From a virus (lineage: Duplodnaviria > Caudoviricetes), in the IMG/VR virus record IMGVR_UViG_3300001528_000360, positions 64,001 through 128,000 of that record: a stretch of DNA of 64,000 nt; one strand, 5' to 3'. Positions 48,845-51,640 of this stretch are shown here, one piece after another. The notes under the pieces are model-generated. The model did no database searches. It was not told the DNA's origin and worked only from the letters and a program-made list of their open reading frames with translations. Position 1 is the first letter of the stretch. Every line of letters starts with the position of its first letter. Position numbers and translations under genes: made by a program.

Positions 48845-51640
48845 TTATTCAATTCCTTCTGAATCTATATTAATCTCAATTGTATATACATCATCATCTT
48901 TAAGTTTTCGATTTACATCGAAAGTTTTATTAAGTTCTGTACAATGTAAATTGAAATTATAATAATCTTCAATAGAATCAAAAGTAGGCGTAATGTTTAG
49001 ATAGTCTTTCTTATTTCCATAGAAAGATTCAATATCTTTATCGAAATTAAATTTAAACCCTTCAGGTTCATGAGAACCATCAAAATACAATCCATCTGTT
49101 TTACAGAATGGTGTCATGATGGCACTTGTACCAGGGTCTGATGTCAGTAATGTTCACACAAGGTCGTTACTCTTATGTAGTTCTCTTATGAACTTCTCTA
49201 TATCATCTATAGAGCTCAGACTATATCTTCATCCTTTATTAAGGAGCCCTCCATTTCCATCTACTTAGATGTACGTGCTAAGCACTAGTCGTTGAACCTT
49301 CATAATCAAAAACTGCTATCTGATCATCATCTGAATAAATTATATTAGAAGACTTAATTTTCTTTTCATCTATTTTAGTACAGGAAATTTCTGCTATATT
49401 ATTTTCTTTAAGAAACTCAGAAAGTTTCTTAATAGCTTTATGAAATTTTCTATTCCCTTTAGATGTAAAGAAGAATTTTGTACCTTCAGGAACTCTTATA
49501 TCAGGAGCTTTTAATTTATATTCAAATATAGCTGTAAGTCTAAATATTTCATTTTCACAGCTATTGGGTTTAGGATGATCATTAAAATCATATTCATAAG
49601 CAGTTGTAATAATTCCTATATCTGTATCTTTTGTTGAATACCGATATAACATATATATTCTCCTTTATGTTGATTATGCTTGGTTGCTGATTATCTTATA
49701 AAAGACTTTCCAGCAATTAAGAGAGATTTGTATAATGTATTACTACATTATGCGGCTAATAATCTACCGCAGACATTAATATCTAAACGGCCTAAATAAC
49801 TTGGATCTAACATATATCTTCATATAGAATCGTTAGTTCTATACCGTTCAATAAAGAACAGCTCTATATTTCTATAGAGATGAGACTATATCTTCAACTT
49901 AGTTAAGTTGCTCTCCATTTCCATCTACTTAGATGTACATTTAGTCGTTGAACTTTTCAATCTGCATTAATAAGAAATTCACCATCCTCATTATAGTTAG
50001 AGATAACATAAATAGTATCAGAATTTTCCTGGCTTTCACCAATATATCCTAAACTAATTGTACTAATCGGTGTAAGTGCTTTCTTATCGTCTACTTTAAC
50101 ATCAAGTAACATAGGTAGGTCACCATATTTTTCAATAAGGTCCTCCATGTTCTTAACAAAAGTACTTGCCATTACAATTTTCATTTTTTTCTTCCTCCTA
50201 TATATAATACAAATTGATTTAGCTGCTGATTGTCTACAGCATTACCTGTTTAGAGATTCCAGCAATTAAGAGAGTTACGTAGCTTATTTTCAAACCACGA
50301 TATTTAGTACTAATGTTATTATCATTATTATTTCCTAAGGAATTCGGTCCTTTAAATGTAATTTTGAGCTTTCCAAATATGTCAAGGTCATTTACACTAT
50401 CATCATACCTTAATAAGCCTGACTTATGCAACTGAGATAGTATAAGATCACCTTGGAACTTAAATATTTCTTCAACATTTTTAAGTGTTGCCTTTGATCC
50501 CATTCCAATAATTCTATTTACTCTATCACTAAACGTCTTCGTGAGAAGCGATGCTATATACTCATTACATCTAAGACGTTTATTTTCCAAACTCATATTA
50601 TCTTTCTTTCTTAGATCAGAGAAATTCTGAACCAACCATCTTACAATTGAATAAATATTCTTTTTATGAATAGGATGTAATTTAAGAATACGTTTTGTAG
50701 TATCATCAATCATACGATCAAAGAATACCATAGTATTCAATCCTTTTTCATATTGAGAATTTTTATTAATCGTTCCGATTGCTCCTAATTCTTCAATCCA
50801 GAAATCTTTATTTTCTAAGTTATCAATAGACATTCGATTTGTCATTAATGTTAACAACATGAATGCCATAGATTTTACATACGTATATTTATAAAAGAAA
50901 TGCTTATTTACTTCTAAGAATAACTTTGAGTTTACACTAAAGTAAATAAACTCTTCTGTATTTTCAGGACTTTCAACAAATCTAATAATTTTATCAACTG
51001 AATAATATTTTAAAGTTTTCTTTAGTCCAATCTTTGCTAAATAAAACAAAAGAATATCTACATTCTTACGGAACACAAGAATTGTATACGTAGGAGCTGT
51101 AAATGATTCTCCTGTTGTAGATTTTGCTGTATACTGTTTTACCTTAATATTAATCGGCATCATAGATTTTAATACAATAGCCGACTTTGTTGTATAAGAT
51201 GCAGAGTCAACGATCTGATATAATAAGAAATATTTATTTCCTTTAATCTTATAATACAGATTATCATCAGGAACAGGAATCAATAATTTCTTTGTGATAT
51301 TTTTAGATTCATCATTGCATTCCAGATGAAATTTCAGACGAAGTTCTGCATATCTTGAATCCTGAAGATACATATATCTTGTAGGATCATTCTTCTTTGT
51401 TTTCGTTCTTGATTTGGCATCAATATACTCACTCGTATTAATTTCAGCTTCATTGGTTACATAATCATATCCAAGGAATTTTACATACTCAAGAACTTCA
51501 AGAGACTTACAACAATCAACTATATAATTAACCAAGTCATCGTCGTACTCTCGATTAATTAGAGGGTAGTTAAATCGTTCTTCATTAGGATTTTTATATT
51601 CTTTGATGAATTTATACATACGATGCATCAATCCCCTCAT
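48845..51640 (-). CDS. Multisubunit RNA polymerase beta subunit, N-terminal part, 3 exons, ~563 aa spliced
   Basis: Exons 51640-50294, 49810-49766, 49144-48845; IKGNKYFLLYQ, KGPNSLG...YRG|LDPSYLGRLDINVCG|TSDPG matches the beta region D pattern. Confidence 0.9.
49145..49765 (-). mobile_element. Group I intron (betaN intron 2), 621 nt, with a non-endonuclease ORF in the P6 loop
   Basis: P1 UGCGGU/GCCGCA; ORF enclosed by stem CATAATCAA/TTGATTATG between Q and R; ends in G. Confidence 0.93.
49278..49652 (-). CDS. Intron-borne hypothetical protein, 124 aa
   Basis: Own AAGGAG RBS; no HNH, GIY-YIG or LAGLIDADG motif; last codons overlap the intron R element. Confidence 0.8.
   Translation of the reverse strand: MLYRYSTKDTDIGIITTAYEYDFNDHPKPNSCENEIFRLTAIFEYKLKAPDIRVPEGTKFFFTSKGNRKFHKAIKKLSEFLKENNIAEISCTKIDEKKIKSSNIIYSDDDQIAVFDYEGSTTSA
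49811..50293 (-). mobile_element. Group I intron (betaN intron 1), 483 nt, with a small non-endonuclease ORF in the P6 loop
   Basis: P1 CGUGGU/GCUACG; ORF between Q and R; ends in G. Confidence 0.93.
49957..50184 (-). CDS. Intron-borne hypothetical protein, 75 aa, acidic
   Basis: AGGAGG RBS; intact ORF; no complete endonuclease motif. Confidence 0.75.
   Translation of the reverse strand: MKIVMASTFVKNMEDLIEKYGDLPMLLDVKVDDKKALTPISTISLGYIGESQENSDTIYVISNYNEDGEFLINAD

Follow-up and report, generated by a model that had tools for sequence, protein, structure and literature searches.

A conserved small protein without recognisable nuclease features is encoded in the P6a loop of a group I intron in a jumbo-phage RNA polymerase gene

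We analysed a group I intron, and the 124-residue protein encoded within it, in a 64,000-nt stretch of phage DNA (hereafter the window), which corresponds to positions 64,001 to 128,000 of IMG/VR record IMGVR_UViG_3300001528_000360. The source record comprises 152,429 bases, is estimated to be 62% complete and belongs to an AT-rich jumbo phage related to AR9 and PBS1. The intron lies on the minus strand in a homologue of AR9 gp105, which is annotated as the N-terminal half of the β subunit of the non-virion RNA polymerase (tblastn to AR9/PBS1: 30% identity, E = 2e-53). This gene, read entirely from the minus strand, is interrupted twice: exon 1 (51640-50294), which matches phrog_2943 (E = 3e-24) and the AR9/PBS1 sequences in tblastn, is followed by a first intron (50293-49811), a 45-nt exon (LDPSYLGRLDINVCG; 49810-49766), the intron studied here (49765-49145) and a last exon (49144-48845) that begins with TSDPGTSAIMTPF. 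The two downstream exons were delimited by alignment to AR9 gp105 and to an uninterrupted orthologue.

The predicted spliced product, ...STKYRG|LDPSYLGRLDINVCG|TSDPGTSAIMTPFCKTDGLYFDG..., is gaplessly colinear with AR9 gp105, and the orthologue, a 556-aa protein of the IMG/VR phage G002 with 81% identity, equals the prediction residue for residue at the junctions. A pattern scan of IMG/VR for close relatives of the host gene had returned none, and the orthologue came from a later genome search. On this basis, the intron and both of its junctions are as good as proven at the level of DNA and protein sequence, and splicing is predicted; a look for sequencing runs that contain this stretch returned none. 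G002 is a complete 264-kb relative whose gene for the polymerase β N-terminal half (L037:1501-3171) lacks both introns. Within nine nucleotides on either side of the insertion point, its allele differs from that of the window at eight bases, all of them synonymous; one of the eight is the -1 base, an A in place of the U that P1 needs.

The intron has an IA2-like core that is recognisable from its P1 pairing, its conserved elements, its terminal G (49145) and partial matches to the Rfam model RF00028, together with the junctions. An internal guide sequence, GCCGCA (49756-49751), pairs with UGCGGU at the end of the upstream exon (49771-49766) to give P1 with a U·G pair at the 5′ splice site. All four core elements are present in order: the P element (AATTGCTGGAA; 49718-49708), the Q element (AATCAGCA; 49692-49685) and the S element, the 3′ strand of P7 (AAGATATAGTC; 49229-49219), were located by motif scan, and the R element (GTTCAACGACTA, J6/7-P7; 49297-49286) lies between Q and S. 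A small P5 hairpin separates P from Q, and this P4/P5 part of the core (49718-49685) is near-identical to that of sister introns that carry no open reading frame (ORF). RF00028 matches the two halves of the intron separately, with 30.3 and 20.9 bits, below the gathering threshold of 50 bits because a 395-nt ORF cassette splits the model. The intron is one of many in this phage: RF00028 finds 10 introns at gathering score within the window and has 23 matches across the whole record, and at least 11 sister introns are without an ORF.

In these ORF-less sisters, the sequence AATCAGCAGCCAAG is followed by a 13-nt hairpin (ACTCTTAATGAGT) and then by AAGGTTCAACGACTA; in the studied intron, the 395-nt cassette takes the place of this P6a hairpin between the same flanks. 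The cassette begins with CATAATCAA (49678-49670), continues with five bases, a ribosome-binding site AGGAG (49664-49660), seven bases and an ATG, and then runs through 124 codons (ORF 49652-49278; protein P0001, a member of a small α/β family). Ribosome-binding sites resembling GAAAGGAG stand at the equivalent place in homologous cassettes. Close to the end of the ORF lies TTGATTATG (49309-49301), which doubles as the codons for F-D-Y-E and pairs over 9 bp with CATAATCAA to close the insert. Thus, the group I intron at 49145-49765, the intact 124-aa ORF with its own ribosome-binding site in the P6 loop and the 9-bp closing stem were all found as described in an earlier note on this DNA.

The stem alone is weak evidence, since a 9-bp stem somewhere in these AT-rich segments arose in 129 of 2000 shuffles. 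The cassettes of L015, L006 and L020, however, have stems of 7, 12 and 10 bp that differ in sequence and occupy an identical register, 6 nt past the Q block and 3 nt ahead of R, and this covariation supports a functional closing stem. The ORF also reaches into the ribozyme itself, in line with the earlier claim that its last codons pass through the catalytic R element: its end, G-S-T-T-S-A-stop, spans the R element, with G-S-T-T reading GTTCAACGACTA, and an extra 11-nt hairpin directly after R (GTGCTTAGCAC; 49285-49275) that the ORF-less sister introns lack and that contains the stop codon TAG (49280-49278). The in-frame overlap of "GSTT" with R is also present in the homologues P0003, P0004, P0012 and P0017, and the fact that several copies have this fusion in common suggests that they were exchanged through breakpoints located in the invariant flanks of the core. 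The intron at L016 has an analogous mini-hairpin after R (about 691-702), which likewise holds the stop codon of its ORF. The topoisomerase II introns (L001:1375-1839, L003:3011-3457 and L023:2992-3465) have a homologous ORF that reads through the whole core from R to S, which adds about 30 residues (IPQGSR...LDGDIV), and the stop lies within the S element (GATATAGTCTGA).

The ORF is a real gene under purifying selection. Among 1.8 billion cluster representatives, at least 27 clusters match the protein at E<1e-3, nearly all of them 107-158 aa long, and the homologues of the window protein are 54-58% identical to it. The family shares the motif LYRY..GI..FE..L..P...FT.KGNRKF.KAI...Y.D.Q, and the ratio of nonsynonymous to synonymous substitution rates (dN/dS) between two intron-borne copies is 0.18. 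AlphaFold with the family alignment returned a confident model (predicted local distance difference test score 92.7, predicted template modelling score 0.84) with the order β-α-α-β-α-β-β-β. The isoelectric point is below 7 in 25 of the 27 members, mostly between 4 and 6.6, as opposed to 8.4-9.5 for the five HNH proteins encoded in other introns of the window. A conserved polar cluster, T-x-x-G-N-R-K, sits at a helix start, together with E44, Y106, D108 and Q111. No other polar cluster is strongly conserved, and the remainder of the protein is acidic, which suggests a role in binding a ligand, phosphate or another protein.

We found no link between this family and nucleases, or indeed any annotated family. 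Pfam, PHROG and PADLOC gave no consistent family for any of the 27 members, and none of the members matched HNH, HNH_3 or NUMOD profiles at E<0.1 or the Pfam profiles for LAGLIDADG, His-Cys box, PD-(D/E)xK and EDxHD. The GIY-YIG profile PF01541 likewise had no match in the family. Profile-profile alignment with hhalign gave a probability of 0.8% against seven intron HNH proteins and of 0.2% against a GIY-YIG protein from L018; these negative comparisons argue that the window protein is not a fragment of the neighbouring endonucleases. The family profile matched nothing below E = 0.2 among the sequences of the PDB, and a comparison of the predicted model with solved structures (Foldseek against the PDB, and VIA-align run widely) gave no meaningful match. 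A BFVD structure search returned one uncharacterised family member only, and the ESM Atlas yielded hypothetical clusters only, plus a similarly shaped domain inside some bacterial GNAT and HAD proteins. Longer or fused relatives of the family were not found, and tblastn of P0001 and P0009 against 50,697 GenBank phage records was without a match; in bacterial contigs, which were scanned with the pattern GNRKFxKAI only, one locus was found. The statement of the earlier note that the protein has no HNH, GIY-YIG or LAGLIDADG motif therefore stands, and the structure prediction and fold searches that it had proposed did not confidently tie the protein to an endonuclease fold already known or to a fragment of such an enzyme. 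Two further ideas, that the N-terminal "LYRY...IG" is GIY-YIG-like and that the topology resembles that of barstar, were not supported by the profile and fold searches, and the weakly matching 1156-aa protein P0029 was not supported as a relative (hhalign probability 9%).

The loop that the cassette occupies is one otherwise used by endonuclease genes. In agreement with the earlier note, which had reported HNH genes in the same loop of five sister introns, all five ORF-bearing sisters encode NUMOD4 and/or HNH_3 proteins at the same point between Q and R (window 20476-21246, 56226-56786, 57790-58380, 59637-60356 and 61616-62497); four of the proteins match HNH_3 and the fifth matches NUMOD4 only (E<1e-3). 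The insertion point is thus shared between near-identical ribozymes, yet the HNH proteins show no sequence relationship to the window protein (the hhalign probability given above) and have the opposite charge. Small non-endonuclease ORFs also occupy the same loop, one of 75 aa in the adjacent intron of the window and others of 66-73 aa in L016 and L020, and their presence indicates that it serves as a general cargo slot.

Small ORFs of this kind were observed in introns next to those with the 124-aa family. The first intron of the window's polymerase gene (49811-50293, minus strand), 45 nt of exon away from the studied one, carries a 75-aa acidic ORF in the same loop (49957-50184; isoelectric point 4.18), for which a search of 5.8 billion proteins gave no homologue and no family match. 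At L016:1458-1679 and L020:3657-3869, P6 loops hold a second small family (70-73 aa, 36% identical, E = 6e-7), in introns that adjoin introns carrying the 124-aa family in two different phages. Kinship between the 75-aa ORF of the window and these 70-73-aa ORFs was not significant (E = 4.6), and a conserved two-gene module with an upstream gene of about 75 aa was rejected, the upstream small ORFs being mutually unrelated.

Members of the 124-aa family were found both inside and outside introns. The intron-borne copies always lie between Q and R, which are 391-411 nt apart, and their host genes are RNA polymerase β (window), the topoisomerase II large subunit (L001, L003, L023-27), DNA polymerase (L006, L020-22) and two genes without an assigned identity (L014/15; L016). 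Free-standing homologues, for which the earlier note had recommended a search, occur in tight operons of small genes or, as in G002, beside a terminase gene (L004, L009, L029, L032, L034). Other copies lie in tRNA arrays at three unrelated loci (L018, L019, L030), where they end a few bases before the next tRNA gene or overlap it. At L018, the family gene starts 4 nt behind a GIY-YIG endonuclease gene and is likely its co-mobilised neighbour. On this contig, which was binned with a Clostridia metagenome-assembled genome, the two genes (L018:1116-2111) jointly interrupt an array of 15 tRNA genes at the point where tRNA-Phe is followed by tRNA-Met, and the family ORF overlaps the start of tRNA-Met. 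Of the family-bearing phage records, the three estimated to be at least 62% complete are rich in introns, with 23, 14 and 13 RF00028 matches.

A comparison of the cassettes with their ribozymes indicates that the two have different histories. Compared with four ORF-less introns of the same genome, which score 86-99 bits, the ribozyme core of the window intron shows 78-80% identity; compared with introns that bear a homologous ORF elsewhere, it reaches only 54-69%. Similarly, the cassette-bearing intron of L006 clusters with an ORF-less intron of the same genome. The protein tree places the window copy in one clade with the topoisomerase II copies and a single copy from DNA polymerase, at identities of 50-78%. 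The topoisomerase II copies are 54-57% identical to the window copy and 59-67% identical to the DNA polymerase copy at L020. L006, the other copy from a DNA polymerase intron, has just 31% identity to L020 and clusters with free-standing genes. Introns of three different host genes harbour close relatives (50-67% identity). Their insertion sites are unrelated: the window intron interrupts GTCTGCGGT|ACATCA, the topoisomerase II intron AAACTGCCT|AACGCG. Taken together, the relatedness of the cores, the protein tree and the unrelated targets imply that the cassette moves independently of the ribozyme and that no particular DNA target dictates where it sits.

On balance, our preferred explanation, to which we give about an even chance, is that the ORF is a mobile passenger cassette encoding a non-nuclease accessory protein. 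We favour it because of the target-decoupled kinship of the copies, the acidic single-domain protein, the lack of a nuclease signature and the presence of other small non-nuclease ORFs in the loop. According to this working model, an ordinary self-splicing group I intron sits at a highly conserved site of the polymerase gene, with the cassette in place of its P6a hairpin. The gene would be transcribed within the polymerase pre-mRNA, and ribosomes would start from the binding site of the cassette, either on the precursor or on the excised intron, while the closing stem would join the ribozyme halves and thereby maintain splicing. The end of the reading frame overlaps P6a, P7 and the R element, so that no single RNA molecule should be able to carry a translating ribosome and a folded ribozyme at once. 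The cassette might travel on introns for which the HNH endonucleases of sister introns supply mobility in trans, and recombination within the nearly invariant flanks (CCAAG ... AAGGTTCAACGACTA) might exchange it from one intron to another; copies of the family would also have landed in the spacers of tRNA genes and in operons of small genes. The data show the intron with its junctions, the anatomy of the cassette, a real family under selection and where its members occur; that the gene is expressed, how it spreads and that its product is not a nuclease are what we infer. The earlier note had offered a new nuclease or maturase family and an accessory phage gene as alternatives; the accessory alternative fits better, the nuclease is retained as the improbable alternative discussed next, and nothing directly supports a maturase.

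Several observations weigh against a passenger. Intron loops in at least three identified host genes, tRNA arrays and free-standing copies together make up the distribution typical of a homing endonuclease gene; intron-borne and free-standing copies are interleaved in the protein tree; the studied intron has no other endonuclease of its own; and the invariant polar set R4, E44, T63, N67, R68, D108 and Q111 could form an active site. Spread by recombination or trans-homing is itself a proposal, and an acidic isoelectric point and small size are compatible with, and do not exclude, an oligomeric nuclease. The protein might hence be a new homing endonuclease or nickase that cuts intron-less or cassette-less alleles and so drives its own spread, an explanation that we consider improbable but the strongest of the alternatives. 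It would account for the occupation of the same loop in the polymerase β, topoisomerase II and DNA polymerase genes and the two genes of no assigned identity, for the copies in tRNA-gene spacers at three unrelated loci and for the movement of the ORF independently of the ribozyme core. The invariant polar residues and the purifying selection would also agree with it, and since the fold matches nothing solved, it may be a new catalytic one. Against it stand the isoelectric points, below 7 in nearly all members and basic in the neighbouring HNH enzymes, and the architecture of a small single domain of 107-126 residues with no DNA-binding module and no fused forms, in which only one acidic residue is invariant. 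Moreover, copies that are 50-67% identical at unrelated targets in three genes would be unusual for target-specific homing enzymes, the mobility of the L018 copy is explicable by the adjoining GIY-YIG gene, and small ORFs that are clearly not nucleases use the same loop. To the same low degree, we consider it conceivable that the LYRY...GNRKF family as a whole is a self-mobile class, either a homing endonuclease whose fold differs from those of the six known families or a cassette with a new mode of movement, that specifically colonises structured-RNA genes, namely P6a loops and the spacers of tRNA arrays.

Somewhat less probable again is a helper of the intron or endonuclease lifestyle, such as a maturase-like splicing cofactor for the ORF-less introns, a modulator, inhibitor or partner of an endonuclease, or an aid in repair after cleavage. 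The abundance of introns in the three better-sampled family-bearing genomes (23, 14 and 13 RF00028 matches) would agree with such a role, as would G002, in which the family member is free-standing and the genome nonetheless has 14 introns, and the operon-like arrangement of one copy with the GIY-YIG endonuclease gene; a small acidic α/β protein might also suit a nuclease inhibitor. Its acidity, however, makes the protein unlikely to bind RNA, the core belongs to a standard self-splicing type of which at least 11 sister introns do without an ORF, and several copies stand in small-gene operons where the surrounding stretch examined has no intron or endonuclease gene. The link to intron-rich phages may reflect mere shared ancestry, and we know of no homing endonuclease that needs an inhibitor. 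A decaying or chance open frame without function in a long AT-rich loop, which the AT-rich sequence and the missing family annotation might suggest, is very improbable given 27 homologous clusters, a dN/dS of 0.18, a confident fold and a conserved ribosome-binding site.

Among the closest known arrangements are the ORF-bearing introns of phage T4, that of td with I-TevI and that of nrdD (sunY) with I-TevII. In these, too, a group IA2-type intron in an essential gene carries an ORF looped out from a peripheral stem (P6a in td), with its own translation signals and a 3′ end that reaches into the ribozyme structure. The T4 ORFs differ in that they are of the GIY-YIG or HNH type with DNA-binding domains; by comparison, the product of the window ORF is acidic, half the size and without any such motif or fold, and it has relatives outside introns as well. 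Phage introns with an ORF in P6a, as in td/I-TevI, are already textbook knowledge (PMC3984707). In the jumbo phage PhiPA3, gp210 is an intron-encoded HNH endonuclease in an RNA polymerase gene that was shown to cut the allele of a competitor (PMC11620839); the window shares with it an ORF-bearing group I intron in a multisubunit RNA polymerase gene of a jumbo phage, but no nuclease features were found in the window protein. Homing endonuclease gene islands (HEG-islands), in which phage cargo genes are mobilised by flanking homing endonuclease genes (PMC10448857), fit the GIY-YIG and family gene pair of L018 and the proposed trans-mobilisation by sister HNH enzymes. They differ in that their cargo lies between free-standing endonuclease genes and here it lies inside a ribozyme loop. 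Organellar group I introns also carry non-endonuclease genes, for example rps3 in a fungal mitochondrial rnl intron. IStrons are group I introns that carry a transposase (PMC4227781). In both, a gene other than a homing endonuclease gene is tolerated in a peripheral position; these encode a ribosomal protein or a transposase, whereas the case described here is a phage intron whose small protein belongs to an unannotated family encoded time and again in introns. Intron-rich jumbo phages of the gut have been described (PMC12880540), but our literature search found no description of the LYRY...GNRKF family or of non-endonuclease cargo that recurs in phage intron loops.

An ORF inside a phage group I intron is taken, nearly as a matter of definition, to encode a homing endonuclease, and here a conserved, selected family without recognisable nuclease features repeatedly fills the endonuclease slot of introns in different essential genes and occurs in tRNA arrays as well. 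If the protein is a passenger, the intron loops of intron-rich gut jumbo phages would be exchangeable cargo bays, and introns would give accessory genes a super-Mendelian route of spread. If it is a nuclease, it would represent a seventh homing endonuclease family, with a new fold and a possible use in genome engineering.

Beyond these results, a terminase intron at L009:1215-1677 (minus strand) has a 377-nt Q-R loop without an ORF of at least 40 aa; a cargo or endonuclease gene may have decayed there. In the window, an NAD-dependent DNA ligase gene (52172-54268, minus strand; phrog_3869, E = 1.6e-101) immediately precedes the polymerase gene on its upstream side, and an ORF of 132 aa at 46695-47093 (minus strand) has a DxDGT-type N-terminal motif (VDFDGTLF) and resembles a small phosphatase of the HAD family.

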